Shown here: positions 27,820 through 43,890 of the stretch, piece by piece
Position numbering within the stretch: the stretch's first letter is position 1
Layout: each line of letters starts with the position of its first letter
Assembly: GCA_958295485.1 (NCBI GenBank)
Contig: OY282354.1
Location: 2,812,042 to 2,876,041 of the forward strand
Source of the DNA: an uncultured Gammaproteobacteria bacterium
Lineage (GTDB): Bacteria; Pseudomonadota; Gammaproteobacteria; Eutrophobiales; Eutrophobiaceae
DNA length: 64,000 nucleotides
Reading direction: 5' to 3'
The notes under the pieces: generated by a model
Database searches by the model: none
Seen by the model: only the letters and a program-made list of their open reading frames with translations
What the model was told of the DNA's origin: nothing
Made by a program: the position numbers and the translations under genes

Positions 27820-27828
27820 TAGTTAGCG

Positions 27829-28779: not shown

Positions 28780-29547
28780 ACGCTTTTCCCAGGCCACTTG
28801 ATTTCGACGGGCGTCCTGTATGAACGGCGACAGCCGGATCAGTTGGAGCACGAGCCGGTTGAGCAACGAGCCGGGAAATTTCAACGGGCGCAGCACGTCT
28901 AAAAACAGCACCACCCGCATGCCATCCGTATTGTTTTGCACGCGATGTTTATAAGTGTCATCAAAAACGATGCACCTGCCCTCTTCCCATGCAGTTGACT
29001 TATCACCGACCTCTATCCAACAATCCTCCCGCGGTTCAGGGACGATCAAGGCCAGGTGGCAGCGCAACAACCCCTTGTAGGGACCCCGGTGCCTTGGTAT
29101 GTGTTTGCCCGGCGCCAGAACGGAAAAAAAAGCCGTGAACATGCCGGGTATGTTTTCGATGATCCGCGTCGTTTCGGGACATTCATTACAGTTGCCGGCC
29201 ATTTTATAGCCATAGCCGTAGAGAAAATAAGATTTCCATTTATCGTCCCGGGTGATATTAGTTTGATCCCGTGAGATGTCCTGAAAGTTCGGGATGCGTT
29301 CAGGGGCTTTCAGCAACCGGTCCAGCTCCTTGCGAATCACCTTCCAGTCGGACTCCAGCAAGTCAACCCAGGCAAATTCCGCGGGGGACAGGAAGGGGGT
29401 ATCGCCAACCGGTGAGAATTTAACTAAAATCCGCTCTATCCGTTTGATTATCCACAATCCCAGGGCCACGCTGATACGGTGCTTTTTCTTCCCCTTGCCG
29501 GGCGGCGGGGCTGGCGGCGGGACAGCGGGATTCATCCGATCCATCAT
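28768..29547 (-). CDS. aspartyl/asparaginyl beta-hydroxylase-family Fe(II)/2-oxoglutarate oxygenase (LpxO-like)
   Basis: Central HIPRHRGPYKGLLRCHLALIVPE block resembles the AspH/LpxO cupin core. 259 aa. The 3' ends of this gene and the cofD-like gene overlap convergently by 12 bp. Confidence 0.55.
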   Translation of the reverse strand: MMDRMNPAVPPPAPPPGKGKKKHRISVALGLWIIKRIERILVKFSPVGDTPFLSPAEFAWVDLLESDWKVIRKELDRLLKAPERIPNFQDISRDQTNITRDDKWKSYFLYGYGYKMAGNCNECPETTRIIENIPGMFTAFFSVLAPGKHIPRHRGPYKGLLRCHLALIVPEPREDCWIEVGDKSTAWEEGRCIVFDDTYKHRVQNNTDGMRVVLFLDVLRPLKFPGSLLNRLVLQLIRLSPFIQDARRNQVAWEKRLGA

Positions 29548-29569
29548 CTAATAAACCTGTCCCCGCGGG

Positions 29570-30529
29570 CTAACGTAAAACATCCCGCTTGACCAGGCGC
29601 CGGAATACCCGCCAGCCGAATAACAAGGGATGGCGTCGGAGCTCAGGGGTGATTTCGACGGCCACGTCGGTATGCCGGCGGATCTTCCAGGCGGCGTAAT
29701 CAACGCCGCTCTCAAACGTCAAGGCGGCTTTCATCAGCCTCAGGACGGACAATATACGCCCCTGCCGGCTGCGCAGAGACCACAGGAACAAGGCCTTCTT
29801 CCGGGCGGCGTCATCACGACGGCGCAAGTAACCGGTTTCATCATGCCGGCGCAATAAACCATCCAGCCCGGGCAATGCCGCAGCCGTCAACCTGGCATAG
29901 TCGTCCAAACCGGATCGGGCCAATCGGCTGGCTCTTGACTTGGATTCAGGCCGGTATTCCGCGGCATAGGACAGGGATAAGGCCCTGGTCCAAATCGCTT
30001 CGATGCTGTTAAGCTCATCTTCCAGGGTCGGGGTCGTGGTTTTCAGGAGGGTCAGCGCCGCCTGCGCCAGGGTCGCGTGAAGCTCATGCCGCACTTTTTC
30101 ATCCCGCGCGTAAAGTATCCGCGCCGGCTGGGAAAACCGCCCCCACAGGTAGGAATGGAACCAATTCAAGACCCCATTGTTAAAATCCGCCAAACTGATT
30201 ACGGCCGACTTGATCCGTATTAACCCGTTGCTGCCTGGTATTTCCCGGTAAAAGACGTTGGGCGGCAACCAGGCATTCAAATACGCAAGGTATGGTTTTT
30301 GATATATCTTTTTGTAGTCATCGACAATAACGTAAATATCGGCAACGTTGTTTTCAAGGTCTTCGTCCTTCAAACAGGAACCATAGAACAAAATTCCGAG
30401 GAGCGCATCACCGTATGATTCTTGAATTTCCCGGGGTATGGCCTGGTATGCCCGGGGTACGGTGGCGGCGCACTGTCGCCCCACGACGGCAACCAGTTCC
30501 GTGGGTAATTCCGGGGGGGCGTTTTTCAT
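29570..30529 (-). CDS. hypothetical protein; nucleotidyltransferase-fold candidate (Tam41/Mmp37-like CDP-diacylglycerol synthase family?)
   Basis: GILFYGSCLKDEDLENNVADIYVIVDDY fits a minimal NTase G-S...D.D signature, and NAWLPPNVFY resembles a block recalled from Tam41. The assignment is tentative. Confidence 0.3.
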   Translation of the reverse strand: MKNAPPELPTELVAVVGRQCAATVPRAYQAIPREIQESYGDALLGILFYGSCLKDEDLENNVADIYVIVDDYKKIYQKPYLAYLNAWLPPNVFYREIPGSNGLIRIKSAVISLADFNNGVLNWFHSYLWGRFSQPARILYARDEKVRHELHATLAQAALTLLKTTTPTLEDELNSIEAIWTRALSLSYAAEYRPESKSRASRLARSGLDDYARLTAAALPGLDGLLRRHDETGYLRRRDDAARKKALFLWSLRSRQGRILSVLRLMKAALTFESGVDYAAWKIRRHTDVAVEITPELRRHPLLFGWRVFRRLVKRDVLR

Positions 30530-30635
30530 GGCGGATGAGTACTTTATAATGATAGTCTTGTTGCAGCGCCGATAATTTTAATACAGGAAACTTCAATGCG
30601 CCACGTCCCCGGTTCAATAAAGTGAGGCTGTCAGC

Positions 30636-31532
30636 TTGAAAATCGCACACATTTCCGACCCCCACATGACGTCATTAGACGACGTTAAATGGCATGAATT
30701 ATTGAACAAACGCATTTTAGGCTATTTTTCATGGCGATTAAATCGGCGTAATTCGCACAGCGTTGAAATACTGTCCCACACGCTCGATGACCTGGCCCGG
30801 CGGCAACCCGACCACGTGATCATCAGCGGTGATCTCACTCACCTGGGCACGATAAATGAATGCCTGGAGGCCAGCGCCTGGTTAAACCGCACAGGCGCGC
30901 CTGAGCATATCTCAATCGTGCCGGGAAATCATGATTGCTACGTGGCCGCCGATTTCGATGCGACAATTGGCCGGTGGCTTGCCTACATGCAAGGCGACCC
31001 GAATGAAACGGACGCCGTTAATCGCTTTCCATACCTGCGCATTCGCGACCCGGTGGCGGTCATCGGCCTTTCAACCGCAGTCCCCACTGCGCCTTTCTTT
31101 GCCACGGGCAGGTTAGGCGCCGAACAACTGCAACGGCTGCATCACCTTCTTGAAACAACTGCGAACCGGGGCCTGTACCGCATTATCGTGCTGCATCACG
31201 GCCCGCAGCCCGGCGCCTCGGGCCATCGGCGGAGATTGGTGGACGCAGGGGAGTTTCTGTCAACCCTGGAGGAGGCCGGCGCGGAGCTGATCATCCACGG
31301 TCATGGACACCGGCAGGTTCACCAGATGTTAGAGTCAGGCGGTCGCTCAATACCGGTCTTCGGTGTCCCGTCGGCATCGGCTCATTACAGCAAGCCGGAA
31401 AAAAAGGCTGGCTATAACATTTACGAAGTGAACAAAACCCCGAACGGATGGCTGACTCAGGTTGAATCCTTTGTTCTTGACGATGCTGATCAGAAATTTG
31501 TAAAAAACTTCTCCCGAGTCTTCAAAACCTGA
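30636..31532 (+). CDS. calcineurin-like metallophosphoesterase
   Basis: IAHISDPH, ISGDLTHLG and VPGNHDCY metal-ligand motifs. Confidence 0.8.
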   Translation: MKIAHISDPHMTSLDDVKWHELLNKRILGYFSWRLNRRNSHSVEILSHTLDDLARRQPDHVIISGDLTHLGTINECLEASAWLNRTGAPEHISIVPGNHDCYVAADFDATIGRWLAYMQGDPNETDAVNRFPYLRIRDPVAVIGLSTAVPTAPFFATGRLGAEQLQRLHHLLETTANRGLYRIIVLHHGPQPGASGHRRRLVDAGEFLSTLEEAGAELIIHGHGHRQVHQMLESGGRSIPVFGVPSASAHYSKPEKKAGYNIYEVNKTPNGWLTQVESFVLDDADQKFVKNFSRVFKT

Positions 31533-31612
31533 CCAGACGTCGCAAAAATCCAGCGCTCCCACGGCGATGGCCCGTAGAACCTGCCCCGGCGGTTGTGATG
31601 CCTGATGTCTGG

Positions 31613-32674
31613 CTAAGCGACCCGTTGCAGCCACAGGCGGGCCGTCAATATCAGGATAAATCCGGGCGCCAACGCAACCAACGCATAGTTCAAGTCAAGT
31701 AATAATCCTGCATTGGATAAAATTTGATCCAGCAGGTATACGCACATCCCGGTGATGCCTGCCAACACCAGGCGATTGCCAAGCCCCGTCCGTATCGAGC
31801 CGAAGACAAAGGGCACTGACAACAACAACATGGCGATCATGATAAAACCAGCGCCTAATTTTCTCCAAAAGACCAGCGAAATCTCATCGTGTTGTTGCCC
31901 TGTTTGCTTCAGGTAACGAATATGCTGGTATAAATCCAGCGGCGACAAACTTTCTGTCGGCTTGGTCAAGGTGGTAACCTGGTCAGGGCTTAAAAAGGGC
32001 TGCCAGCTCACTTGCTTCATATGTTTCGTGTTCGCCTGAGAAACGTAGAATTCCTTCTTTGTTACGTTATTCAAGTTCCATTTTTCATCGCTGATTATTT
32101 CTGCATTCTCTGCATGCATATATTCGGAGAGCAAACCCTTCTCATCCATTTTAAAAATTTCTATGTCTTTCATGTAGGAAGCATGTATCGACTCTCCTAT
32201 TCTCAAAACATGATTTTCATCGCGCGTCCATATGCCCAGGTCCTCTCCCAATTCCGCGCTCTTGTTCAGCGCCTCCGAACGATAGGCGATCGCTTTCTGT
32301 TGCAATAAGGGCGCGCCAAATTGCTCCAGCAGAACCAACAGCGCCAACAAGCCTATGCCGACCTTGAATGATGCAAGACTGAGTTTCGCGGGAGACAGCC
32401 CGGCGGCGCGCATGGAAATAATTTCCGAATGAATCGCCAAGCGCCCCAGCGCAATCACGTTGCCAATCAGCGCGATAAACGGAAGTAGTTGAATTAGCCT
32501 CCTGGGGAGCAATAACAAGACAAAGTAGAACGCATCCTGCGTGCGATAATATCCCTCGCCAACGTCATCCAACTGCTCAATCAGGTCCAAAAAGCTGAAA
32601 AGGGGTAGTAAAACAGCCGCCGCGATTAATAATCCCTGGCCAATCTGCCGCATCAGGTATTTTTCAATTATCAT
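31613..32674 (-). CDS. lptG: LPS export ABC transporter permease LptG
   Basis: YjgP/YjgQ-family permease. The start (MIIEKYLMRQ...) overlaps the lptF stop in an ATGA arrangement. Confidence 0.75.
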   Translation of the reverse strand: MIIEKYLMRQIGQGLLIAAAVLLPLFSFLDLIEQLDDVGEGYYRTQDAFYFVLLLLPRRLIQLLPFIALIGNVIALGRLAIHSEIISMRAAGLSPAKLSLASFKVGIGLLALLVLLEQFGAPLLQQKAIAYRSEALNKSAELGEDLGIWTRDENHVLRIGESIHASYMKDIEIFKMDEKGLLSEYMHAENAEIISDEKWNLNNVTKKEFYVSQANTKHMKQVSWQPFLSPDQVTTLTKPTESLSPLDLYQHIRYLKQTGQQHDEISLVFWRKLGAGFIMIAMLLLSVPFVFGSIRTGLGNRLVLAGITGMCVYLLDQILSNAGLLLDLNYALVALAPGFILILTARLWLQRVA

Positions 32675-33741
32675 CCAAAAACTTTTCTCTTGAACCCCGG
32701 GGAAAGAAATACAAGAACGACTGCCACCATCAAAAGATGCAACCACCAAATACCAGGAAATTCATCAACCGCGCCTTGTTCCACCCAGGTCCGGGCGACG
32801 CCACTGAGGTTATAGTAAACCGCGAATATCAAGGCAGCCATAAAGGCTTTTTCATTTTTCCCCTGCCTGGGTGATGAGCGACTCAGCGGAATGGCAATCA
32901 GCGCAAGCAATATGGTTACTATGGGCCTGGACAGCCTCCATTGGACTTCTGCAATATCCGACGGGATATCGGAATCGAGCAAGCTGGAAGTCGCTGCCGC
33001 TTTACGCTTATACCCGATACTGATCGCAAGATCTTCCTGGAACTTGACCAGCTTATCAAAATCAACCAGCTCATCGTCCGCCGAATTCCGCTTCAACTTG
33101 TACAGGCGACCATCCTTCAAATGCACTTGAAGTCCCTGGCCATCCTCCCCTTGGCGCTGGTTCGCGGTCACGGCCATGATGATTTCACTGTTGTTTCCAT
33201 TACGCGTGTAATGAAACACGTTGGATACCTCGCTGGTTGCTTCAGCCTTGTCATTAACGTAAACAACGGCGCCGGTTTCTTCGTTGCCATAAAACCGGCC
33301 CGGCTGAAACCGGTCGATGTTCAAATCGGCATTTGCCCTGGCATCAAGAATATAACTGCTCTCGTATGCCCAAGGCCGTCCTTGCAAAGAAAGCGCCCCT
33401 ACCACCATGCCGATTGGCACGGCAATGATAACTATTGAATGAATGATATGCTTGTCACCGCCGCCGGCCGCCTGCAAGGCGACTATCTCCTGGTCACGGT
33501 GCAACCTGCCTAATCCCATCACTATGGAAACATAAAGAGCGACAGGGATTAAAACTTCGAGGGCTATAAACGTCTTTAATAAAATCAATTTGAACATGAA
33601 ATAGATGCCCAGGGTCTCAGCAACCGCTTCCGCCAGGTATCTTGCGCTGCTAAAGCAGGCAAACAAGGCGACTAAAATGATTAATACGAAGCTGAAGGGC
33701 TTGAGTACTTCGAAGATGATATAACGTTCGATATTGGCCAT
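32671..33741 (-). CDS. lptF: LPS export ABC transporter permease LptF
   Basis: YjgP/YjgQ-family permease with an N-terminal MANIERYIIFEVLKPF and a periplasmic beta-jellyroll insert. Paired with lptG. Confidence 0.75.
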   Translation of the reverse strand: MANIERYIIFEVLKPFSFVLIILVALFACFSSARYLAEAVAETLGIYFMFKLILLKTFIALEVLIPVALYVSIVMGLGRLHRDQEIVALQAAGGGDKHIIHSIVIIAVPIGMVVGALSLQGRPWAYESSYILDARANADLNIDRFQPGRFYGNEETGAVVYVNDKAEATSEVSNVFHYTRNGNNSEIIMAVTANQRQGEDGQGLQVHLKDGRLYKLKRNSADDELVDFDKLVKFQEDLAISIGYKRKAAATSSLLDSDIPSDIAEVQWRLSRPIVTILLALIAIPLSRSSPRQGKNEKAFMAALIFAVYYNLSGVARTWVEQGAVDEFPGIWWLHLLMVAVVLVFLSPGFKRKVFG

Positions 33742-33845
33742 GCGCTGTCCGGCTGAATTTTACGGATGCCGATTTTATCCATATCCTGTAACATGCCGGA
33801 TTGTATTATAAATTCCGTTAAACTTCCCGAAAGAAACAAACATCC

Positions 33846-34592
33846 ATGGTTAACGCGATTATATTGAGCGCGGGACAGGGCAAAAGGCTGCTGCCCCTGA
33901 CGGAAACGCGCCCCAAGTGCATGCTTCCCGTCGCCGGAAAAACGATATTGGAATGGCAAATTCATTCATTACTGGAAGCGGACATCGACAAGCTGTTTAT
34001 CGTCACCGGGTTCAATACGGAGCTTGTTGAAGAGCATATCAACAAGCAATTCAGCGATGACCTGGCAAGGTTGAATATCATATTCAATCCCTTTTATAAC
34101 GTATCCGATAACCTGGCCAGTTGCTGGATGGCTGGTCATGCAATGGATGAAGATTTCATTTTATTAAACGGCGATACACTCTTCGAACCATTATTATTGG
34201 ACACCGTCCTTAATTCACCTTCCTGGCCGGTCACCTTGACTATCGACTATAAAGATGGTTACGACGATGACGATATGCGGGTCGAACTGCATGCTTCCAT
34301 GGTGAAATCTGTCAGTAAAGCATTAACGGACGAGCAAACCCATGCAGAATCCATCGGCCTGCTGTATTTTCGTGAAAACGGGCCAGCCTTGTTCCATGAC
34401 CATTTGAACCGGCAAATGAAAAAAAATGATGGCTTGAAGTTATGGTTTTTAAGCGTGGTCGATTTATTGGCCGGGCAATCCCTGGTGCGCCCCTGCAGCA
34501 TAAACGGTCATCGCTGGCGCGAAATCGATTTCAAAAAAGATCTGGACTCGGCAGAAAACATCGTTCTTCCCCGGATACAGCCAACTGCCTGA
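33846..34592 (+). CDS. sugar-phosphate/phospho-alcohol nucleotidyltransferase (LicC / CTP:phosphocholine cytidylyltransferase-like NTP-transferase)
   Basis: N-terminal NAIILSAGQGKRLLPLT motif and LNGDTLF block. 248 aa. Confidence 0.6.
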   Translation: MVNAIILSAGQGKRLLPLTETRPKCMLPVAGKTILEWQIHSLLEADIDKLFIVTGFNTELVEEHINKQFSDDLARLNIIFNPFYNVSDNLASCWMAGHAMDEDFILLNGDTLFEPLLLDTVLNSPSWPVTLTIDYKDGYDDDDMRVELHASMVKSVSKALTDEQTHAESIGLLYFRENGPALFHDHLNRQMKKNDGLKLWFLSVVDLLAGQSLVRPCSINGHRWREIDFKKDLDSAENIVLPRIQPTA

Positions 34593-34646
34593 ATCCCCCC
34601 TTGCCGGCCCCATCATCCATCGTAACAGGCATCGCCTGACACCGGG

Positions 34647-37460
34647 TCAGGAGAACAGGAAGTCTCCCGCGTCCAGGTCGGCAATATCGAAATTCTCAAG
34701 CCGGATCGTTCCCCCGCCATGGGCCACCAAGTCGATTGTAACACCGCCCGAGCCGGACGATACGACGAGTTCATCAAAGCCCGACAGACCAAAGGCGCTG
34801 AGGTCGATCAGGTTATCACCATCGGTAAAGTCGGCAATGACATCGTCGCCATGTCCAAAATCGAATATGAATACGTCGTCACCGCCCCTGCCCAAGAGCC
34901 TGTCATTGCCGCCACCACCGGACAGCCGGTTAGCGCCGTCGTCACCCCCCAGCACGTCCCCGTAGCCAGACCCCAGCACGTTCTCAAAGTTAACAATTAC
35001 ATCGCCTTCCGCATCGCCTCTCTTTACCGTGCCCTCTGACAGGTACACTATTACCCCCCGGTCCGACCCCGCATAGGACACCGTGTCCACGCCCGCGCCG
35101 CCGAACAGCTGGTCTGCGCCCGCGCCCCCTTCCAGCATATCGTCACCGGCCCCACCCAAGAGCCGGTCATTGCCGCCACCACCGGACAGCCGGTTGGCGC
35201 CGTCGTCACCCCCCAGCACGTCCCCGTGAACAGACCCCAGCACGTTCTCAAAGTTAACAATCACATCGCCCTGCGCATCGCCTCTCTTTACCGTGCCCTC
35301 CGACAGGTACACTGTTACCCCCCGGTCCGACCCCGCATAGGACACCGTGTCCACGCCCGCGCCGCCGAACAGCTGGTCTGCGCCCGCACCCCCTTCCAGC
35401 ATATCGTCACCGGCCGCGCCCAAGAGCCTGTCATTGCCGCCACCACCGGACAGCCGGTTGGCGCCGTCGTCACCCCCCAACACGTCCCTGTGAACAGACC
35501 CCAGCACGTTCTCAAAGTTAACAATCACATCGCCCTGCGCATCGCCTCGCTTTACCGTGCCCTCCGACAGGTACACGATTACCCCCAGGTCCGACCCCGC
35601 ATAGGACACCGTGTCCACGCCCGCGCCGCCAAGCAACCGGTCCGCGCCGGCGCCCCCGTCTAACATGTCATCACCATCGCCACCGGACAGCCGATTGGCG
35701 CTGCCATCACCCCCCAGTACATCCTCGTAACCAGATCCCAGCACGTTCTCAACGTCAACAATCACATCACCCTCGGCATGACCACCCTCTCCCGTGCCTG
35801 CCTCGAGATCCACCATCACCGCTCCGTCCGAACTACTATAGGACACCGTGTCTACGCCAGCGCCGCCAAGCAGCCGGTCCGCGCCCGCGCCCCCCTCCAG
35901 CACGTCGTCGCCACCCCTGCCCGAGAGATTGTCATTGCCACCACCACCGGACAGCCGGTTGGCGCCGTCGTCACCTTCCAAAACATCCTCATATCCAGAC
36001 CCCAGCACGTTCTCAACATCCACAATCACATCACCCTCGGCGTGACCACCCTCTCCCGTGCCCGTCTCGAGATCCACCGTCACTGCCTCGTCCGACCCAC
36101 TATAGGACACCGTGTCCATGCCCGCGCCGCCGTCCAGCTGGTCCGCGCCAACGCCCCCCTCCAACACGTCGGCGCCACCCCTGCCCGAGAGATTGTCATT
36201 GCCGCCACCACCGGACAGCCGATTGTCGTCGTCGTCACCCCCCAGCACGTCCCCGTAACCAGACCCCTGCACGTTCTCAACATCCACAATCACATCACCC
36301 TCCGCATGGCCTCCCGCCACTGTGCCCGTCTCAAGGTCCACTGTCACCGCTTCGTCCGACCCGCTATATAACACCGTGTCAGCGCCAAGACCACCCTCCA
36401 ACCGGTCGGCGCCGGCGCCCCCCTCCAACACGTCGTCACCGCCATTACCCCACAACTCATCATTGCCCGCGCCCCCCACCAGACGATTCACAACAGCATT
36501 GCCAATTATCCTGTCGTTGCCAGACCCGGCAATGACATTCTCAATCCAGGTATCACGCGCAATCACCACGTTGCCAACGAAGCCGTAAACATCCGAAATG
36601 CCCTCCGGACGCAAGTCAATCCGCTGGTCAAAGATATCCGTGCGCCCGTCCAGCGTGTCGCTGCCACCCGTGTCGTAGATCGTCAGCGTCACCGGCCAGT
36701 CAAGAGAAAAGTCCTCGGTCACCTGTGCAAAAAGCTGACCGAGGTAACCACCCACGTTGGATTCGTAACCATAGACGGTATCGCCGGCATTGATGTCAGT
36801 GGGCGCCCCATAGAGATTCTGGATCGCGATGATGTCCGCGATCATCGGTGTAACGACGTAAGCATAGCTCGCATTGATGTAGGTGTTCTCGGTCTGGCTG
36901 AAGTAGGACATGACCGTCGCTTGCCAGGAGTCGCCCGGGAATATGTTGTCGGCGCCGTAGGCGCCAGAACTGTTATAGGGCCCCGCGTGGCCCAGGCCGA
37001 GCGCGTGACCGATCTCGTGGATGTAGGTGGAGAAGCTGTAACTGTCAATTGTTGAGCCGTTGGCATCAAGCCAGTTCGTCGAGACATTGACGTGCGAGGA
37101 AATGATTTGGCTGCCCGACCAACTCGTGGATGCAAAGGCGCCTTCTTCTGCATCATCGAAGGTGATGTCGGCATCACCCCTCACGAACCGGAAGTCGATG
37201 TCGGTGACGTTAGTCCAGGCCTCCAGCGCCCAACGGGCAAGCTGCTGGCCTGCGGCGGTCAGACCGGTGATGTCGGCGTTCAGCGTACCGCCGGGCGCCA
37301 CGTCGAAGGCGTGACGGGAACCGCCATCCCACTCCCAATAACCGTCGGCCAGGTAGTCGGCAATTTGATCATAGTTGACTTTGGGGGGTTCGTTTCCCCC
37401 TGATGATTGGGTTTCAGCGCCCGTCACCGCCACGCCGTGATTGCTTTTCGGAATTGTCAT
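34647..37460 (-). CDS. secreted serralysin-family (M10B) zinc metalloprotease with an extended RTX calcium-binding repeat region and a C-terminal T1SS signal
   Basis: HEIGHALGLGH zinc motif plus ATVMSY Met-turn. Dozens of GGxGxDxL nonapeptides sit in about 7 tandem 88-aa modules. The acidic C-terminus is ...DLDAGDFLFS. Confidence 0.9.
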   Translation of the reverse strand: MTIPKSNHGVAVTGAETQSSGGNEPPKVNYDQIADYLADGYWEWDGGSRHAFDVAPGGTLNADITGLTAAGQQLARWALEAWTNVTDIDFRFVRGDADITFDDAEEGAFASTSWSGSQIISSHVNVSTNWLDANGSTIDSYSFSTYIHEIGHALGLGHAGPYNSSGAYGADNIFPGDSWQATVMSYFSQTENTYINASYAYVVTPMIADIIAIQNLYGAPTDINAGDTVYGYESNVGGYLGQLFAQVTEDFSLDWPVTLTIYDTGGSDTLDGRTDIFDQRIDLRPEGISDVYGFVGNVVIARDTWIENVIAGSGNDRIIGNAVVNRLVGGAGNDELWGNGGDDVLEGGAGADRLEGGLGADTVLYSGSDEAVTVDLETGTVAGGHAEGDVIVDVENVQGSGYGDVLGGDDDDNRLSGGGGNDNLSGRGGADVLEGGVGADQLDGGAGMDTVSYSGSDEAVTVDLETGTGEGGHAEGDVIVDVENVLGSGYEDVLEGDDGANRLSGGGGNDNLSGRGGDDVLEGGAGADRLLGGAGVDTVSYSSSDGAVMVDLEAGTGEGGHAEGDVIVDVENVLGSGYEDVLGGDGSANRLSGGDGDDMLDGGAGADRLLGGAGVDTVSYAGSDLGVIVYLSEGTVKRGDAQGDVIVNFENVLGSVHRDVLGGDDGANRLSGGGGNDRLLGAAGDDMLEGGAGADQLFGGAGVDTVSYAGSDRGVTVYLSEGTVKRGDAQGDVIVNFENVLGSVHGDVLGGDDGANRLSGGGGNDRLLGGAGDDMLEGGAGADQLFGGAGVDTVSYAGSDRGVIVYLSEGTVKRGDAEGDVIVNFENVLGSGYGDVLGGDDGANRLSGGGGNDRLLGRGGDDVFIFDFGHGDDVIADFTDGDNLIDLSAFGLSGFDELVVSSGSGGVTIDLVAHGGGTIRLENFDIADLDAGDFLFS
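34850..36420. repeat. about 7 tandem 264-bp near-identical repeats inside the RTX protease gene
   Basis: The nested reverse-frame ORFs MLTLRTCWGL... recur with ends at 34996, 35260 and 35524 (period 264). Protein modules DTVSY.GSD..V.V.L..GT...GDA.GDVIV..ENVLGS...DVLGGDDGANRLSGGGGND repeat almost verbatim. Confidence 0.8.
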
Positions 37461-37479
37461 GTCTCTTTCCTCTTTACCG

Positions 37480-37917
37480 TCAGAAGACGGGATAGCTCAC
37501 TTTCAAAAGACCCCGGACGAATTGCTGGTAAGCGCTCGGACCCAGCGGCGCATCCATGCCCCAGATCTCGACGGGTGGACCTGTCGTCCGGCCCGCGCCG
37601 CTTTTCTGCCCTGCCACCCCCCAGGTTAAACGCCCCTCCCAGCTATGGGGCTCAGTGCGTAGCACCTCGAGCACAATGTCTCGCGCCCCCGCAGGATAGG
37701 GTTCGGACTGAACGCGCCGCTGAACCACGCGGCCTGGCTCTCGCTCGCTGAGTTCTGCTTCGAGTACGGCGCAAAGCTCCGTAACAACCGCCTCGTCAGT
37801 ATTTGTCTCGCCATGGCAGGATAACACAATCGGCGTCGCATCCCCCCACGCCGCTAGCGCCATCCCCAAGACAAGGCCGGCGCCCAGAAACTGTGTCCGT
37901 GAGGGAAGCCTATTCAC
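37480..37917 (-). CDS. small secreted protein of unknown function; candidate cognate periplasmic protease inhibitor
   Basis: 145 aa with a signal peptide (LGAGLVLGMALAAWG) and two Cys. It ends 19 bp before the RTX protease start and is co-oriented with it. No confident similarity to AprI/Inh was recognised. Confidence 0.35.
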   Translation of the reverse strand: MNRLPSRTQFLGAGLVLGMALAAWGDATPIVLSCHGETNTDEAVVTELCAVLEAELSEREPGRVVQRRVQSEPYPAGARDIVLEVLRTEPHSWEGRLTWGVAGQKSGAGRTTGPPVEIWGMDAPLGPSAYQQFVRGLLKVSYPVF

Positions 37918-37928: not shown

Positions 37929-38774
37929 TCAGTCATGGTGAACACCCTGATCTTCAGGCCATTGTCCTTCGACTCCTGAAAGTATTCTCTCTACTAATTC
38001 CTTGTCAGCCGGGGTATCCACGTCGATGCTGGCGCGGGCAAACGGCAACTCGACGAAATTCACCCTGACTTCAGTGTTTTTAAAAACAGAACGCCTGGCT
38101 TGATCAATACTCAATAATCCGAAGAAATATTTTACCAGCGCGCTAAAACCAAACAGTCTGACAACTATTTGCCAGGGTTTTTTACGATTCGCTTCAACCC
38201 GGCGCCAGAATGAAATAATGCCTCTGCCTCTCCTGGTGGAAACAGCATATAAATTACAGCTACAGAATTCACCATCAGAAAACCGCAGGACAGTGCGCTG
38301 CGCGCCCGGATACGTCTCTTTAACCAGGCTGTAATTTACCAGCCCGATATTGAAGTCAACGCGACTTTCATCCACTCTGTCTAAAAAACAATCAAGCGCG
38401 TCTACGTCCAACAAAGCGTGGTCTGCCGTTGTTATTAAAACAAGTGAATCAGGATCAATCTTTTCCAGGCCTGCCCGTATGCTATTACTGAGGCTTTTTT
38501 CGCCGGAGGTCCAGGTGACATTATTTTGTTTAATGAATTGTTGCAATCGAGGACAGCCATCAACGGCCGATTGAGACGGACCACATAGCACATACGAATC
38601 AATGCGTTCACATGCTTCCAGCGCATTTATTACCCGGATGATCATCGGTGTTCCCAATATCGGCGCTAATGCCTTGCATTCAGAGTTGGAAACACGCGCA
38701 ACGGCATCGTTGTCCGTCCGGTCACCGGCCAGCAATAACGCTACGATTTCCCGCCCGTTTTCTTTTTTCACCAC
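37929..38774 (-). CDS. MobA-like NTP-transferase-fold protein (NTP_transf_3-type nucleotidyltransferase)
   Basis: IVALLLAGDRTDNDAV...KALAPILGTPMI N-terminus and LITTADHALLDVDAL block resemble MobA/CofC-type guanylyl/cytidylyl-transferases. 281 aa. Confidence 0.45.
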   Translation of the reverse strand: MVKKENGREIVALLLAGDRTDNDAVARVSNSECKALAPILGTPMIIRVINALEACERIDSYVLCGPSQSAVDGCPRLQQFIKQNNVTWTSGEKSLSNSIRAGLEKIDPDSLVLITTADHALLDVDALDCFLDRVDESRVDFNIGLVNYSLVKETYPGAQRTVLRFSDGEFCSCNLYAVSTRRGRGIISFWRRVEANRKKPWQIVVRLFGFSALVKYFFGLLSIDQARRSVFKNTEVRVNFVELPFARASIDVDTPADKELVERILSGVEGQWPEDQGVHHD

Positions 38775-38856: not shown

Positions 38857-39996
38857 TCATAAGTATTTTTGGTATATCCGGTAAGTTTTGTACAAGCTGC
38901 TCCCTATCCTCTCGAGGATGCTGCGCATCCCCAGGTTGTCTTCCAGAATCCATGACATCTCCACCGCTTCGACCCCCCGGGCCATGAGCGCCTCCTTGAC
39001 GCAATTTATCACTAAAAAGGCTAATGCCATTCCCAGGGGCGTGTTTTGCAATACCTTCCTGACACCCATTAACGGCACTCTTCCCGTTTTGATTTCCTGT
39101 TTTTTCAAGGCCCGAATTAACCTGAATATGCCCAGTGGCAATAATCTGCCATCCAGGCCCTTCAAAACCTCATTCAAATTGGGCAACGCCACGATAAAAG
39201 CGACCGGCGTTCCTTCATACTCCGCAATATAGACGTAATCATCCGGGACGAATAATCGTAGACTCGCTCCCAGCTCGGCGAACTCCGCCTGCGTGATGGG
39301 GGTAAACCCCCAGTTATCAGACCAGGCGTCATTGAAAATATTCCTGATAAGCTCCAATTCCTGTTTGAATTTTTTTCGATTCAGTTCTCTCAAGGTGACG
39401 GATTTTCCATACCTGTCGACCAGGGCTCGCATGACGCGGGGCGCGGTAAAATCGGTTTTGACCCAATAGGCGTACAGGTCTTTTACCGCGCAGTACCCCT
39501 GTTGTTCCAGCAATTCGCCGTACCATTCACGGTTATGGGGCATCATCAATGCTGGGGGAGTGTCAAATCCATCCACCAGCAGACCGCATTCCTGGTTGAT
39601 GGAAAAATTGAAGGGGCCTGTAACGACTTCGGTCTGTTGTTGCAGCAGCCAACCCTCGCTCTTTGCCACGAGCGCGCTGGCTACGTCATGGTTATTTTCA
39701 TACTCCAATAATCCGAAGTGACCGGATTTCACGGAATAATGGCGGCGATGCAATTCATCAACCTGGGCGCTGACCCTGCCCACAGGCTGGTTGCCCCGAT
39801 AAGCAACCCACGCTTGCCACCGGCCATGGGCAAAATAAGGATTTAAAGAGGAAAAATGCAGTCTTCGCTCCAATTTCAGCGGAGGGACCCAATTGGGATC
39901 ATCTGCATATATCTGCCAGGGCACGCGGATAAATGCCGCCAGGCGACGCCGATCGCTGACAGGCAAGACCCGTATGCTGCCAGAAGTAGCCGCCAA
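38857..39996 (-). CDS. GNAT-fold acyltransferase-like protein (FemAB/BioF2-like); candidate bacterial ceramide synthase
   Basis: 379-aa soluble protein with an acetyltransferase-like C-terminal half (...VAFIVALPNLNEV...). It is divergently adjacent to the spt/acp/acyl-ACP-synthetase/reductase set. The function is inferred from context only. Confidence 0.4.
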   Translation of the reverse strand: MAATSGSIRVLPVSDRRRLAAFIRVPWQIYADDPNWVPPLKLERRLHFSSLNPYFAHGRWQAWVAYRGNQPVGRVSAQVDELHRRHYSVKSGHFGLLEYENNHDVASALVAKSEGWLLQQQTEVVTGPFNFSINQECGLLVDGFDTPPALMMPHNREWYGELLEQQGYCAVKDLYAYWVKTDFTAPRVMRALVDRYGKSVTLRELNRKKFKQELELIRNIFNDAWSDNWGFTPITQAEFAELGASLRLFVPDDYVYIAEYEGTPVAFIVALPNLNEVLKGLDGRLLPLGIFRLIRALKKQEIKTGRVPLMGVRKVLQNTPLGMALAFLVINCVKEALMARGVEAVEMSWILEDNLGMRSILERIGSSLYKTYRIYQKYL

Positions 39997-40166
39997 CGCT
40001 TCCCCCCTTTATAATCCTTGCCGCGCCATTACCGCGGGCTGATAGCCCGCTTCACTAAAGAAAAGCAAGAATTCTTCTCAACTTTGAAGCACAACTGATT
40101 AAATTAACTGGAAAAATCATTTTAGTAGTGTAAACTGCGCCTATTTTTACCATAATAATCAGCGGA

Positions 40167-40619
40167 ATGACAGAAGATATTAGCATCCCGAATAAGACGA
40201 TGCTGAAATTCGGGGCGCCGGAGACCAGTATTCACTCCTATTCCTCCTGGTTGGTGTTACTGCGTCCGGTCCAAGTAACGTTGGGCGCCCTTGTACTGGT
40301 CGCCCGTGAGCCAGTGACTGCATTTTCACAGCTCAGCCCGGCTGGTTTTACTGAACTTGCCAAAGTCACGCATGACGTTGAGACAGTATTATCTCATCTC
40401 TTTCACTATGATAAACTGAACTACCTGATGCTGATGATGATTGACCCTGACGTCCATTTTCATGTGATACCCCGTTACGCAAAAAATCAGCAGTATGCCG
40501 CCCGGGATTTTTTCGATTTTGCCTGGCCCGGGCCACCAGATCTGGGACAAAATAATAAGGTCGATGATGAAATTTTTAATCATCTGCGGGATGAATTGAA
40601 GGCCAACTGGCCGGCTTGA
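40167..40619 (+). CDS. HIT-family (histidine triad) nucleotide-binding protein
   Basis: HFHVIPR histidine-triad motif. 150 aa. Confidence 0.65.
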   Translation: MTEDISIPNKTMLKFGAPETSIHSYSSWLVLLRPVQVTLGALVLVAREPVTAFSQLSPAGFTELAKVTHDVETVLSHLFHYDKLNYLMLMMIDPDVHFHVIPRYAKNQQYAARDFFDFAWPGPPDLGQNNKVDDEIFNHLRDELKANWPA

Positions 40620-40860
40620 GTGTGATAAGTAATGGATATAAAAGGATGCACGTTTTTACAAGGTGGTGTAATATTCCGTGTTGTGCTTCTTGGGAGGAGG
40701 GGTATGATAAATGGTTTTTTTATAGCAACTATTCATTTCTTTAACAGAACAGCTTAAGAGTTTTTTGCTTTTGCATGGATATTTGATATATTGTGATATG
40801 ATAGAAAATAAATCTATCGCCGTTAACGGACGTAAAAAATAAGACAGAGGTTTATCAGCC

Positions 40861-42612
40861 GTGAACCGAAAAGCAACGACCACTGCTAATGTACTAGCGC
40901 AAAATTTAGCGGGTTTTCCCAGTTTGTCTGAGGCGTTGGACTACGCAGCCGCCGGTGTTACCGGATGTAATTTTTATGATGCAAGGGGAAAACTCTCTGT
41001 AGTTTTACCTTATAGTGAGCTACAGCAACAAGCGAAAATTACCGCCCGGCGTCTCTTACAACTCAATTTAAAACGCGGTGATCATGTTGCCCTGGTCGCC
41101 GATACCCATCCTGATTTCATTGTCCTGTTCTTTGCCTGCCAGTACATCGGTCTTGTGCCATTCGCAATGCCAATACCATTGAATTTGGGCAGCCACGCCG
41201 TTTATGTTCAACAACTCCGCGGCTTGCTGACCGGTGGCAATGCAAAGGTGGCTATAGCCCCCAAAGAATTCATCGGTTTTTTAGAAGAAGCGACGGTTGA
41301 TGATAAAACCCTCGAGTGGGTTGGAACACCGGAGCAATTAGCGACCATTCCCCCATTAGACCATCCCCTTAGTCCAAGCAAACCCAACGAACCTGCGTAC
41401 CTGCAATTTACCTCGGGCAGCACCAGGTTCCCTCAAGGAGTCGTTATTACCGGTAAAGCGGTAATGAGTAACCTGCAAGGAATAGTGAGAACCGGTTTAA
41501 AGGTCCACCATGGTGACCGTTGCGCGTCCTGGTTGCCGTTTTACCATGACATGGGGTTGGTCGGATTTGTCCTGGGTCCAATCGTATCCCAGTTATCAGT
41601 GGATTATTTACGTACCCGTGATTTTGCAATCCGTCCCCTGCAGTGGTTACACCTAATCAGCCGTAACCGCTGTACCATCGCATTTGCGCCACCCTTCGGC
41701 TATGAGCTTTGCACCCGCCGAATTCGTAAAGCGGATCTGCAAAAATTGAACCTGGCCAGTTGGCGCATTGCCGGCATCGGCGCCGAGATGCTTCGCTCCA
41801 GCACCTTTGATAATTTTGCGGCAAAGATGACTGAAACAGGTTTTGACTCCAAGGCTTTTTTACCTTGCTATGGACTTGCCGAAGCTTCGCTTGCAGCTAC
41901 GTTTTCGGAACTGGATCGCGGTCTGAACGTAATGTCTATCGACGCGCTGACCATGGCCGAGCGAGGCACTGCTGTGCGGGTTAAATCGGATCACAGAAAA
42001 GTGAATGAAATCGTAAATTGCGGCCGCGCCATTCCTGATCATGACATCAAGATCGTCGATAACAAAGGAAGCTCCCTGCCTGATCTGCGAGTCGGCAGGA
42101 TCCTGATAAAAGGGCCCAGCCTGATGAGCGGCTATTTAAACGATCAACAATCAACCGACCGGGTTTTATTGGATGACGACTGGCTGGACACTGGCGACCT
42201 GGGTTATTTATTCGAGCATAACCTTTATTTAACCGGGCGGCGTAAAGACATCATCATTGTAAACGGCAGAAATATTCGCGCCCAGGATCTCGAAGAGATC
42301 GCAGAAGACCTGGACGAGGTAAGAATGGGTGAGGCCTCCGCGTTCGACACTGAAGATACCGATGGAAGGCAAACTGTCGTATTAGTGGTTGAATGTCGTC
42401 TTACAGACAGCACGACCAGACAATCATTAATTAAACGCCTGCAAAGAAAAGTTTACGAAGGCTTTGGAATTTATTGCTATGTGGATTTGGTAGTGCCGCA
42501 TACGCTGCCACGCACCTCCTCAGGGAAACTATCCCGTGTCGCCGCGCGTAAAGGGTTCATGGAAAGAGTAGACCTGAAGCAGACCGATTCAGGGCAGCTG
42601 GAAACCGGATAA
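40861..42612 (+). CDS. fatty acyl-AMP ligase-type adenylating enzyme (acyl-ACP synthetase candidate)
   Basis: FTSGSTRFPQGV (AMP-binding core A3) and GDLGYL...GRRKDIIIVNGRNI, SSGKLSR (A8/A10) motifs. GTG start. 583 aa. An ACP gene lies two genes downstream. Confidence 0.8.
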   Translation: MNRKATTTANVLAQNLAGFPSLSEALDYAAAGVTGCNFYDARGKLSVVLPYSELQQQAKITARRLLQLNLKRGDHVALVADTHPDFIVLFFACQYIGLVPFAMPIPLNLGSHAVYVQQLRGLLTGGNAKVAIAPKEFIGFLEEATVDDKTLEWVGTPEQLATIPPLDHPLSPSKPNEPAYLQFTSGSTRFPQGVVITGKAVMSNLQGIVRTGLKVHHGDRCASWLPFYHDMGLVGFVLGPIVSQLSVDYLRTRDFAIRPLQWLHLISRNRCTIAFAPPFGYELCTRRIRKADLQKLNLASWRIAGIGAEMLRSSTFDNFAAKMTETGFDSKAFLPCYGLAEASLAATFSELDRGLNVMSIDALTMAERGTAVRVKSDHRKVNEIVNCGRAIPDHDIKIVDNKGSSLPDLRVGRILIKGPSLMSGYLNDQQSTDRVLLDDDWLDTGDLGYLFEHNLYLTGRRKDIIIVNGRNIRAQDLEEIAEDLDEVRMGEASAFDTEDTDGRQTVVLVVECRLTDSTTRQSLIKRLQRKVYEGFGIYCYVDLVVPHTLPRTSSGKLSRVAARKGFMERVDLKQTDSGQLETG

Positions 42613-42621
42613 CGGGTTAAA

Positions 42622-43542
42622 ATGTCGAAGCAGGTGGCGCTGACAGGAGCCACAGGCTTCATTGGAAGGAACCTGCTCACTTCACTGGTTAAATCAAGGG
42701 TCCCGACGCGGGCGTTAACGCGCCGGCAACAAACCGGGTCTGAATTGTCCGGGCTTGTTCATTGGATCAACGGCGATTTAAACAATCATTCCGCATTAAA
42801 TGAATTAGTCGAAGGCTGCGCTTCCGTAATACATTGCGCCGGCGTCGTCAGGGGAAATTCACTGGAAGATTTTTTGGAAGTCAACCTCAAGGGAACTGAA
42901 AATCTTCTTAATGAAATCTGCAAAAAGGCATATAAACCAAAATTCCTCCTGATCTCATCGCTCGCCGCGCGCTACCCTGATTATTCCTGGTATGCCCAGA
43001 GTAAATCACTGGCGGAAACATTGCTGCTGTCGGAGAAGCATTCCGGGTTGCCCCGGACGGTCTACCGCCCAACCGCGGTTTACGGTCCCGGCGATAAGGA
43101 AATGCGTCCCTTATTCAGCGCCATGCGTCATGGTTTCTTGTTGGCGCCGAAAGTAGCTGACTCAAGGATCAGCCTGCTCCACATTGATGACTTGGTGAAT
43201 GCCGTCTTAAAATGGTTAACGGCAAAAAATACCGGGGGCATATTTGAGTTGGACGACGGTACTGAAGATGGTTACCAATGGAAAGACATCGTGGCCATTG
43301 GACAGGACACCTGGAATAATTCGATAAAACAGGTCCGGGTTCCAATTCCATTATTAAACACTTTCGCCCATATTAATCTCCTGCTGGCCAGGATTTTTCG
43401 GTATCCGGCCATGCTGACTCCGGGTAAAATCAATGAGATTACCCATAAGGATTGGGTATGCGATAATGCTCCCTTGACAACCTGTCTGGGATGGGAACCA
43501 AAAATAAATTTAATCGATGCGATTAATGGGGCTTCAATTTAA
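42622..43542 (+). CDS. NAD(P)-dependent epimerase/dehydratase-family reductase (ceramide/3-ketosphinganine reductase candidate)
   Basis: ALTGATGFIGRNL Rossmann motif and YAQSK catalytic YxxxK. 306 aa. Confidence 0.7.
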   Translation: MSKQVALTGATGFIGRNLLTSLVKSRVPTRALTRRQQTGSELSGLVHWINGDLNNHSALNELVEGCASVIHCAGVVRGNSLEDFLEVNLKGTENLLNEICKKAYKPKFLLISSLAARYPDYSWYAQSKSLAETLLLSEKHSGLPRTVYRPTAVYGPGDKEMRPLFSAMRHGFLLAPKVADSRISLLHIDDLVNAVLKWLTAKNTGGIFELDDGTEDGYQWKDIVAIGQDTWNNSIKQVRVPIPLLNTFAHINLLLARIFRYPAMLTPGKINEITHKDWVCDNAPLTTCLGWEPKINLIDAINGASI

Positions 43543-43628
43543 TCCATTTAGAGGCAGCCCTCGCGCCGGCCCTGGACAGGGCCGGCGCATACCAAGGTCG
43601 GGGATGATTTAAATTCGGGGAATGACCT

Positions 43629-43883
43629 ATGCCTTCAAGTTATGAAGAAATATCGACAAAGATCACGAGTGAGCTATCCGGCCTCGTTCCGCCGGGCGTC
43701 AGATTAAGCGATGATTCCGAACTGGCTACGGAGCTCGGGCTGGATTCATTCAAGGTCCTGGACCTGTTGCTGGACATCGAAGATGAGTTCGACATAACCA
43801 TGCCCGTGAATCTCCTCGCAGACGTTCACACCGTTAAAGACCTGGTGGATAAGATCCACGAAGTAGTCAATTCTTCCCCATGA
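43629..43883 (+). CDS. acyl carrier protein
   Basis: 84 aa with an ELGLDSFKVLDLL phosphopantetheine-attachment-like DS motif and the acidic helix-II pattern. Confidence 0.8.
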   Translation: MPSSYEEISTKITSELSGLVPPGVRLSDDSELATELGLDSFKVLDLLLDIEDEFDITMPVNLLADVHTVKDLVDKIHEVVNSSP

Positions 43884-43890
43884 GCGCCCC

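Follow-up and report, generated by a model that had tools for sequence, protein, structure and literature searches.

A repeat-rich RTX protease gene that stands apart from secretion genes raises the question of what, if anything, is unusual about its locus. The gene considered here lies in a 64-kb stretch of DNA, the whole of which is referred to as the window. A first-pass annotation had described it as an orphan serralysin gene with an exceptionally long RTX region. The protease belongs to a large marine family, of which it is an unremarkable representative; the one unusual thing at the locus is orf145, a small partner gene beside it that is conserved but uncharacterised.

A divergent protease of the serralysin family

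The open reading frame of the protease is uninterrupted and encodes 937 aa, at exactly the coordinates given by the annotation (Table 1); the frameshift or disruption for which the annotation had allowed was not seen. Its assignment of the HEIGHALGLGH catalytic domain to the serralysin type was borne out by the motif itself, by Pfam and by the best PDB matches. Pfam scores exceeded the cut-offs for Peptidase_M10 (26.7 bits versus 24), Peptidase_M10_C (PF08548; 68.7 bits versus 20.7) and HemolysinCabind (161.8 bits, in 10 stretches). With phmmer, aa 64-359 aligned with residues 78-381 of serralysin (1SAT) at an E value of 8e-44, and Foldseek matched the protease domain to AprA (1KAP), serralysin (1SAT) and PrtC, with serralysins at E values of about 1e-14; these three proteins were the best PDB matches by both sequence and fold.

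Table 1. Positions of features at the protease locus, numbered from the first nucleotide of the window.
Feature	Position	Strand	Basis or remark
NTP-transferase gene	33846..34592	+	flanks protease
Serralysin-family RTX zinc metalloprotease gene, complete, 937 aa	34647..37460	-	ORF list; Pfam
N-terminal region, aa 1-310: catalytic metzincin domain and start of serralysin C-terminal domain	36531..37460	-	phmmer, Foldseek
Zinc-binding motif HEIGHALGLGH (HExxHxxGxxH), aa 148-158	36987..37019	-	sequence
Met-turn TVMSY with serralysin-type tyrosine, aa 182-186	36903..36917	-	sequence
Four RTX nonapeptides before module array, aa 311-346	36423..36530	-	sequence, nonapeptide pattern, model
A-type modules R1-R3, 88/88/79 aa, '...VTVDLExGTGEGGHAEGD...'	35658..36422	-	DNA identity 79-84%
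B-type modules R4-R6, 3 x 88 aa, '...VYLSEGTVKRGDAQGD...', copy-number-variable array	34866..35657	-	DNA identity 89-94%
C-terminal 72 aa, '...DVIADFTDGDNLIDLSAFGL...' capping region, end ...DLDAGDFLFS	34650..34865	-	sequence
Ribosome-binding site GAGGA, 7 nt before protease ATG	37468..37472	-	sequence
orf145, small exported protein of 145 aa with signal peptide and two invariant Cys	37480..37917	-	upstream of protease
NTP-transferase gene	37929..38774	-	flanks cassette, upstream side
Antisense ORF	34719..35039	+	
Antisense ORF	35226..35663	+	
Antisense ORF	35778..36371	+	

Among 34 homologues, residues H148, E149, H152, G155 and H158 of the zinc site were invariant, as were M184 and S185 of the Met-turn, and Y186 was at least 90% conserved. 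The tyrosine of the (S/T)xMSY Met-turn is the fifth zinc ligand in the serralysin family. Three defining features of this family (MEROPS M10B) were found in the protease: the HExxHxxGxxH motif, the Met-turn with its tyrosine and a catalytic domain followed by a C-terminal beta-roll domain. The tandem GGxGxDxUx nonapeptides typical of RTX proteins were found as well, with 27 regular-expression matches, two of the leading ones at aa 329 and 338. Conservation extended to the C-terminal region, where F864, F866, D877, F878, D880, D883, I885, D933 and F934 were conserved in the same 34 homologues, and both the ...DLDAGDFLFS end and the '...DFTDGDNLIDLS...' region were conserved across the family. 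In the AF2 model (mean pLDDT 80.6) the RTX region, including the leading nonapeptides, shows strands every 9 residues and mostly scores 85-96. Confidence is low for a hinge at aa 594-605 and for some stretches of the catalytic domain, among them aa 161-201, where the Met-turn lies. The N-terminal metzincin domain would be predicted to carry out catalysis, the remainder forming a long calcium-binding RTX beta-roll.

Serralysin, AprA and PrtC of Serratia, Pseudomonas and Dickeya (MEROPS M10B) share with the protease the zinc motif, the tyrosine-bearing Met-turn and a Ca-binding parallel beta-roll behind the catalytic domain. They lack an N-terminal signal peptide, as the protease also appears to, and at their C-terminal end, as at its own, hydrophobic residues come after an acidic one. 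Identity to them is only about 27-32%, and the protease differs in having no adjacent inh or T1SS genes. Its score with the NCBIfam model NF035945 for the Zn_serralysin subfamily, 301.5 bits, falls under the curated cut-off of 500, and it is therefore placed on a divergent branch, serralysin-like at the family level but not an orthologue of serralysin. Typical RTX proteases have about 480 aa (PMC3034196), compared with 937 aa here, the difference being due to extension of the beta-roll by six 88-aa modules.

Marine Alpha- and Gammaproteobacteria (Roseibium, Stappia, Rhodobacteraceae and sponge-type MAGs) encode long serralysin-like RTX proteins that have the same architecture, 88-aa module and small partner gene, and whose catalytic domains are 50-61% identical to that of the window protease. 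Such proteins have been reported in bulk for Pseudovibrio (PMC4811931); no biochemical characterisation of them was apparent in the literature searched. At E <= 1e-30, 5597 related database proteins were found, and the 101 listed relatives carrying the zinc motif range from 613 to 1640 aa, with a median of 1383. The RTX region had been called exceptionally long, but at 937 aa the window copy is shorter than most and is thus short for its clade. The protease itself adds little; many-repeat serralysin-like RTX proteins abound in bacteria that are marine or host-associated.

A module array that varies among strains

The repeat region forms a tandem array with a period of 264 bp, with TRF scores of 1383 and 1075 (threshold 50), far above chance. 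It had been reported as about seven near-identical copies; the 264-bp period and the 88-aa module are real, but the modules number six and share 76-94% DNA identity. They span positions 34866-36422; five units measure 264 bp and the other, from which one 27-nt nonapeptide is absent, 237 bp. Each comprises some nine turns of nonapeptide length, of which six approach the GGxGxDxUx pattern. Two subfamilies were distinguished, R1-R3 and R4-R6, whose internal DNA identities are given in Table 1 and which are 76-79% identical to one another; protein identity between modules is 67-93%, and the longest exact DNA run that modules have in common is 73 nt.

The best PDB match of the repeat region, by sequence search and Foldseek, was the RTX domain of Bordetella CyaA, in which canonical nonapeptide blocks likewise alternate with degenerate '...D.V.NIENL.GS..ND.L.GD...N.L.G' linkers. 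CyaA differs in having five non-identical blocks and no protease domain, and it is a pore-forming toxin that needs acylation. The antisense ORFs of Table 1, which had been described as identical and nested, encode peptides that are similar rather than identical; they were rejected as real genes and are by-products that merely mirror the repeat.

Comparison with sister strains revealed variation in the array, as the annotation had anticipated. Positional orthologues in L082 (1291 aa) and L083 (1115 aa) share the neighbouring genes of the window locus, with flanking DNA 95.8-98.2% identical to that of the window locus, and contain 10 and 8 modules, respectively, versus six here. These alleles differ from that of the window only in the number of B-type modules, seven and five versus three, the A-type set R1-R3 being kept in all three strains. 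Every length difference preserves the frame and amounts to a whole number of 264-bp units. L082 contains two modules with 100% identity and two with 98.5%, which points to a recent duplication of three modules.

In the mechanism proposed, unequal homologous recombination would add or remove distal B-type modules in whole units of 264 bp; the resulting 6-, 8- and 10-module alleles would differ in the length of the beta-roll stalk, leaving the protease domain untouched. Alleles of 6, 8 and 10 modules in backgrounds about 96-98% identical provide a clean natural case of in-frame module gain and loss, suggesting that beta-roll length is tuned by recombination. They also warn annotators that length differences in such genes need not be errors.

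The same comparison bears on the proposal that the count of six is an error of assembly, in which a longer array (8-10 modules, as in the sister strains) was collapsed. The 8 and 10 modules found at this locus in those strains are compatible with collapse, and the fully identical modules of L082 imply that assembling arrays of this kind can be difficult. The window modules, however, diverge by 6-24%, and no exact match between them exceeds 73 bases, so that ordinary reads could place them; the reading frame and the order of A and B modules are intact, and a 100% identical protein (P0010) is encoded on a single contig of 3.57 Mb (3,568,310 bp), which suggests a long-read assembly. Collapse is thus very improbable, and the annotation's warning of easy mis-assembly loses most of its force, the strain differences also being exact 264-bp steps in an intact frame.

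Few relatives have secretion genes nearby

No ABC, MFP or TolC genes were found in the flanks of the protease gene, in agreement with the first-pass annotation. The finding extends to the whole 64-kb window, where the ABC signature motif LSGGQ is absent and Pfam detected no T1SS component among the larger ORFs. T1SS genes were also absent beside two paralogue loci of sister strains (L084, L085), and when the PrtD-type ABC protein of the related locus L081 was used as query, no protein of this species occurred among the best 120 matches, each of which shares at least 67% identity with that protein. The designation 'orphan' describes what is the rule in this family, as an ABC and MFP gene pair was found within the flanks (up to 10 kb on each side) of only 5 of 80 homologous loci. 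Unlinked T1SS acting in trans are textbook knowledge for serralysins, the LipBCD system of S. marcescens secreting PrtA (PMC3034196). At L081, a 102-aa mini-protein homologous to the C-terminal domain of the protease is encoded directly upstream of the PrtD-type ABC and AprE-type MFP genes; both the ...DLDAGDFLFS end and the '...DFTDGDNLIDLS...' region recur in this mini-protein.

The ...DFLFS end of the protease is predicted to be a serralysin-like C-terminal type I secretion end. The protein would be exported unfolded, C-terminus first, through a PrtD/AprE/TolC-type T1SS encoded elsewhere in the genome, and would fold outside the cell on binding Ca2+.

The protease gene had been placed between nucleotidyltransferase genes. 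NTP-transferase genes do bracket the locus, but orf145 intervenes on the upstream side, so that the protease is not directly flanked there. A scan of the 34.3-39.1 kb region for promoters and terminators gave only uninformative counts, at or below the shuffled expectation. A recent horizontal insertion, considered because of the G+C content of the two genes (61-63% versus 47-48% in the adjacent NTP-transferase genes), was rejected: their GC3 of 0.66-0.72 lies partly within the range of other window genes, which reaches 0.70, and their G+C is inflated by Gly/Asp/Ala-rich repeats.

The distance from secretion genes could also mean that the protease gene was moved away from them and is a decaying or non-secreted relic, no longer active or exported, its shrinking array reflecting erosion. 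Consistent with this are the lack of a T1SS inside the window, an allele that is the shortest among the three strains, a site and gene order that differ from those of more distant gammaproteobacterial MAGs, and a protease G+C of 61.5% compared with 47-48% in the two flanking NTP-transferase genes. Yet no part of the ORF is missing, its catalytic and calcium-binding motifs are all conserved, it is preceded by a good ribosome-binding site, and all changes in length are in frame. Furthermore, the locus is conserved in three strains, the order of orf145 followed by the protease gene is common in alphaproteobacteria, and most members of the family are unlinked to T1SS genes, all of which makes a relic quite improbable. 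The product is probably a functional, secreted zinc endopeptidase of the serralysin family (MEROPS M10B-type), with the T1SS route, repeat dynamics and partner gene proposed here, its proteolytic activity being predicted from sequence.

A conserved exported partner

The gene orf145 was overlooked in the first-pass annotation. Its stop codon is separated by a 19-nt gap from the protease ATG, the GAGGA ribosome-binding site lying inside this gap, and the two genes are probably co-transcribed. In the orf145 family, the N-terminal hydrophobic segment preceding AWG|D or AWA|D corresponds to a signal peptide, mature orf145 being predicted to begin at D26, and a homologue from another relative (P0001) is 92% identical. 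The predicted fold is a beta-alpha-beta4-alpha sandwich, resembling PelC and LptE.

Linkage to the protease is tight across two proteobacterial classes: in 32 of 33 alpha- and gammaproteobacterial loci the orf145-family gene is linked to a protease gene and not to T1SS genes. It is located 16-93 nt upstream of the protease in L082, L083 and 22 of 23 alphaproteobacterial loci, 564 nt upstream in the remaining one (L018), and immediately downstream in seven gammaproteobacterial MAG loci. By position and localisation, orf145 would most simply be a periplasmic partner of the protease, with which it would form a two-gene cassette.

Inhibitors of the Inh/AprI/SmaPI/LupI type (MEROPS I38) are likewise small proteins with a signal peptide, encoded beside the protease or ahead of T1SS genes (operon layouts from PMC3034196). 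Of the traits of such inhibitors, orf145 has a Sec signal peptide, a mature size of about 12-13 kDa, comparable with theirs, and a gene beside that of the protease. Homology to Inh/AprI was rejected, as no sequence match was found and the predicted sandwich is not the eight-stranded antiparallel beta-barrel of these inhibitors. Searches of Pfam with 11 family members (no match at E <= 10), of NCBIfam (no inhibitor-family match at E <= 1), of PDB sequences (no match to the inhibitors of 1SMP, 1JIW and 6IXX) and of folds revealed no similarity to known protease inhibitors. By analogy rather than homology, orf145 could nevertheless be a protective inhibitor resembling Inh/AprI.

A comparable pair is BamI and Mep72 of P. 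aeruginosa. The small gene for BamI, which has no relation to AprI, directly precedes the gene for the metzincin Mep72 and is transcribed together with it; BamI binds Mep72 and neutralises the toxicity of the protease (PMC4334185). As differences, Mep72 carries carbohydrate-binding modules and is secreted by the type II route, BamI is described as partly disordered, and no homology between BamI and orf145 was apparent here.

It is possible, though still tentative, that the orf145 family, whose members are exported proteins of about 120-150 aa with two conserved Cys, a PelC/LptE-like fold and no curated model, constitutes a hitherto undescribed class of proteins that act in the periplasm as partners of serralysin-like RTX proteases. 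Its members would most likely be cognate inhibitors or immunity proteins that replace the Inh/AprI beta-barrel in marine Alpha- and Gammaproteobacteria, forming with the protease a mobile two-gene cassette that uses a T1SS encoded elsewhere.

Rather doubtful, but to be weighed against an inhibitor, is a role of orf145 as an envelope or secretion accessory, such as a periplasmic or outer-membrane-associated factor that aids the T1SS or anchors the exported protease. At L081 the orf145-family gene heads the mini-RTX / ABC / MFP cluster (PrtD/AprE-type), which contains no protease gene, and the homologue P0003 has a possible lipobox Cys, both consistent with such a role. The linkage to the protease rather than to T1SS genes in all but one of the loci argues against it, as does the lack of any orf145 match at the five protease loci that carry a T1SS. 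As a tightly linked exported partner, orf145 is a candidate for either a new type of metzincin inhibitor or a secretion accessory.

Paralogues and possible hosts

Two or more further serralysin paralogues (including P0013 and P0014) and an RTX-only protein also appear to be encoded in the same genome. A mosaic pattern was observed among the paralogues, suggesting that several RTX protease genes of one genome may undergo concerted evolution. The nearest genomes belong to MAGs whose isolate names suggest sponge symbionts; if so, these proteases may matter for interactions with the host matrix or immune system.

The serralysin-like protease

Most of the interest of this locus lies in orf145, a conserved, uncharacterised gene for a small exported protein, and in a clean allelic series of 6, 8 and 10 repeat modules in the adjacent RTX protease, which is itself intact and ordinary for its very large serralysin-like family. 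The protease gene is uninterrupted and lies exactly where the first-pass annotation placed it. Peptidase_M10, Peptidase_M10_C and ten HemolysinCabind stretches were all above their gathering scores in Pfam, and in a phmmer search of PDB sequences residues 64-359 aligned with residues 78-381 of serralysin 1SAT (E 8e-44), with PrtC and AprA close behind and the repeat region matching the RTX domain of CyaA. The zinc motif HEIGHALGLGH occupies residues 148-158 and the Met-turn TVMSY residues 182-186; H148, E149, H152, G155, H158, M184 and S185 are invariant across 34 aligned homologues, of which at least 90% also keep Y186.

In the AlphaFold2 model (mean pLDDT 80.6), three-residue strands recur every nine residues through an RTX region mostly at pLDDT 85-96, a predicted beta-roll, and a low-confidence hinge at residues 594-605 coincides with the junction of the A- and B-type modules. 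Foldseek placed CyaA-RTX first, followed by AprA, serralysin and PrtC (E ~1e-14, 27-32% identity). There is no N-terminal signal peptide, and the C-terminal 72 residues (...DVIADFTDGDNLIDLSAFGL...DLDAGDFLFS) resemble in pattern the tail of serralysin, which ends in ...DFQKGIDKIDLS...DFIV. With the NCBIfam serralysin subfamily model the score was 301.5 bits against a cut-off of 500; the protein belongs to a divergent serralysin-like branch and is not an orthologue of Serratia serralysin.

When one genome per species was scanned, at least 549 loci proved to encode relatives of the catalytic domain, the best matches being uncultured Gammaproteobacteria MAGs (57-61% identity), followed by Roseibium, Stappia, Rhizobium/Ciceribacter and many Rhodobacteraceae (48-59%). 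Among 8000 candidates scored, 5597 database proteins matched at E <= 1e-30; the 101 with the zinc motif among the matches listed have 613-1640 residues (median 1383). Characterised RTX proteases typically have about 480 (PMC3034196). Against these the protein, with its supposedly exceptionally long RTX region, is indeed long, but within its clade it counts as short. In sponge-associated Pseudovibrio, serralysin-like RTX proteins have been noted as the dominant "toxin-like" class (PMC4811931).

Anatomy of the repeat array

Tandem Repeats Finder detected two arrays with a 264-bp period and a 237-bp variant between them. Anchoring on the protein motif GGxGADxLxGGxGxDTV delimited six modules, R1-R6, instead of the seven or so first counted. 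The A-type modules R1-R3 ('VTVDLExGTGEGGHAEGD') are 79-84% identical in DNA and the B-type modules R4-R6 ('VYLSEGTVKRGDAQGD') 89-94%, with 76-79% between types. To call the repeats near-identical or almost verbatim was an overstatement, since they fall into two subfamilies (76-94% overall) and the longest exact stretch common to any two is 73 nt; the antisense ORFs, described as identical, are similar only and simply mirror the repeat. Nine segments of nonapeptide length and seven further residues make up the 88-residue module; about six of the nine are close to the calcium-binding pattern GGxGxDxUx, which is matched 27 times in the whole protease.

Coordinates of features in the window and of example orf145 homologues in other loci
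Feature	Position	Strand	Remarks
Protease	34647..37460	-	937 aa
orf145	37480..37917	-	145 aa; directly upstream of protease, 19-nt gap to its ATG
R1	36159-36422	-	264 bp / 88 aa
R2	35895-36158	-	264 bp / 88 aa
R3	35658-35894	-	237 bp / 79 aa; one 27-nt nonapeptide missing
R4	35394-35657	-	264 bp / 88 aa
R5	35130-35393	-	264 bp / 88 aa
R6	34866-35129	-	264 bp / 88 aa
264-bp-period array	34876-35675		3.0 copies, 93% matches, score 1383
264-bp-period array	35666-36437		2.9 copies, 84% matches, score 1075
Fatty acyl-AMP ligase	40861-42612
Serine palmitoyltransferase	43891-45084		NCBIfam 616 bits, above cut-off
CofE and CofD genes	26998-28779
ORF	2633-4267	+	544 aa
ORF	59094-60350	+	418 aa
orf145 homologue	L001:11865-12401
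orf145 homologue	L030:9060-9557
orf145 homologue	L069:9121-9543
orf145 homologue	L081:10001-10438

Module number in sister strains

Positional orthologues occur in two sister strains, L082 (protein P0004, 1291 aa, on a 3.77-Mb contig) and L083 (P0007, 1115 aa). Their flanks match the window DNA at 95.8-98.2% identity, and the neighbours are the same, in the same order: XdhC, Polysacc_synt, aminotransferase, ACP, reductase, AMP-ligase, a 150-aa gene (HIT-like in the window), a 379-aa gene (GNAT-like), NTP-transferase, orf145, protease, NTP-transferase, LptF and LptG, on to the F420 ligase. Every allele holds three A-type modules (88, 88 and 79 aa in the window), together with three B-type modules in the window, five in L083 and seven in L082, and all differences are exact multiples of 88 residues, the reading frame being kept. 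In L082 the 264-bp modules starting at residues 780 and 1044 of P0004 (L082:12338-12601 and 13130-13393) are 100% identical in DNA and the adjacent pair, starting at residues 692 and 956, 98.5%, which indicates a very recent 792-bp duplication of three modules. The predicted recombinational change in copy number is thus borne out, and from family knowledge unequal homologous recombination would account for both gain and loss of modules. The accompanying worry about mis-assembly loses its force for the window allele, in which such an error is unlikely because it is the contracted and most diverged form of the three.

A database protein 100% identical to the protease, P0010, comes from a 3,568,310-bp contig. 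Three further matches are listed with a contig of this very length and are inferred from it to come from the same genome: two serralysin paralogues, P0013 (1406 aa) and P0014 (1290 aa), and P0056 (860 aa), which is RTX-only. The genome thus seems to have three or more serralysin-RTX paralogues and an RTX-only protein, all with the same 88-aa module. A comparison of window 36400-37460 with L082:10001-11066, L083:10001-11066 and L084:10001-11060 showed the catalytic-domain DNA to be mosaic: the first 100 nt are closest to the positional orthologues (95-96% vs 84% for paralogue P0005), and alignment columns 700-1000 are closest to P0005 (92-95% vs 76-88%). This pattern suggests gene conversion among the RTX-protease paralogues. 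A 696-aa paralogue also lies about 30 kb away in one sister strain (L083/L085), about 10 kb from a Caps_synth/sulfotransferase gene whose counterpart is at 900-2564, and for this reason a further protease copy may lie just beyond the left edge of the window.

The partner gene orf145

Nucleotidyltransferase genes do bracket the locus, but the description of the protease as sandwiched between them overlooked orf145. Read from its GTG start, the product begins with what looks like a signal peptide (…FLGAGLVLGMALAAWG|DATP) and contains two invariant cysteines, and a GAGGA ribosome-binding site precedes the protease ATG in the gap that follows orf145. A family profile search found it in 33 of 85 fetched loci from Alpha- and Gammaproteobacteria. 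In L082, L083 and 22 of the 23 alphaproteobacterial loci, it lies upstream on the protease strand, with 16-93 nt between its end and the protease start; in the remaining one, L018, the gap is 564 nt. Rhizobium/Ciceribacter, Nioella, Shimia, Stappia and Rhodobacter capsulatus are among the alphaproteobacterial sources. In seven gammaproteobacterial MAG loci it directly follows the protease. The family has no sequence match in Pfam, NCBIfam or PDB, and an exhaustive profile search among 1.84 billion proteins gave only 84 representative clusters at E <= 1e-3. The AlphaFold2 model is a beta-alpha-beta4-alpha sandwich (pLDDT 76, pTM 0.71) with a predicted PelC/LptE-like fold.

Classical serralysin operons carry the gene for a small periplasmic inhibitor, inh/aprI, in positions like that of orf145 (PMC3034196), and the metzincin Mep72 has an upstream, co-transcribed gene for BamI, a small inhibitor unrelated to inh/aprI (PMC4334185). 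Because of its gene position and localisation, orf145 is tentatively proposed as a candidate functional analogue of Inh, a reading to which we give somewhat less than even credence; the main alternative is an envelope or secretion accessory instead of an inhibitor. Homology to Inh was tested and rejected. Any role of orf145, or of the protease toward a host, is speculative.

Secretion

The protease had been called an orphan, and Pfam searches of the ORFs between 27 and 51 kb and of other large ORFs indeed found no type I secretion system (T1SS) component in the window, nor does an LSGGQ ABC signature occur in any frame of the 64 kb. The label is nevertheless unremarkable: by tblastn, a PrtD-type ABC transporter and an AprE-type MFP occur together in only 5 of 80 homologous loci (fetched flanks of up to 10 kb per side), no T1SS was found at the paralogue loci of the sister strains, and a protease unlinked to its T1SS is the normal state for the family. 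S. marcescens offers an established case, in which the serralysin PrtA is secreted by LipBCD, a T1SS not linked to it (PMC3034196).

In a distant relative, L081, an orf145 homologue (53% identical) stands ahead of a 102-aa mini-RTX gene, an ABC transporter and an AprE-type MFP (L081:10438-13879). The 102-aa protein has one or two RTX nonapeptides and a C-terminal secretion domain homologous to the protease tail; it may be either what is left of a deleted protease gene or a T1SS substrate of minimal size. The transporter has 581 residues, and one database relative is named "PrtD family type I secretion system ABC transporter". A search with it returned no protein of the window species' contigs among the best 120 matches. 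From family knowledge, the C-terminal signal would direct the protease through a trans-encoded PrtD/AprE/TolC-type system, Ca2+ would drive its folding outside the cell, and it would act by Zn-dependent proteolysis.

Cassette relocation and neighbourhood

In the distant gammaproteobacterial MAG loci L001, L002, L004, L006, L007, L008 and L011, an epimerase gene and gltX enclose the cassette, in which the protease precedes orf145; L004 and L007 have tandem protease genes, two each. The window species has orf145 first and the protease second, across the F420-ligase…LptG block from the MAG position (window 23224-37917 compared); these opposite sides of one block indicate that the cassette has moved within its neighbourhood.

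The surroundings (38857-46476 and 28768-34592, beside lptF/lptG) look like a bacterial sphingolipid (ceramide) gene neighbourhood. They hold a serine palmitoyltransferase, a fatty acyl-AMP ligase, an SDR reductase, an ACP (called in L082/L083), the GNAT-like 379-aa protein, an OlsC/LpxO-like hydroxylase, a Tam41-like protein and two NTP transferases. Elsewhere in the window, Pfam gave no match at E <= 1e-5 for the two large ORFs of 544 and 418 aa. Genes for the F420-0:gamma-glutamyl ligase (CofE) and CofD are present in this gammaproteobacterial context, and are kept beside the same block in L001, L004, L006, L007, L008 and L011.
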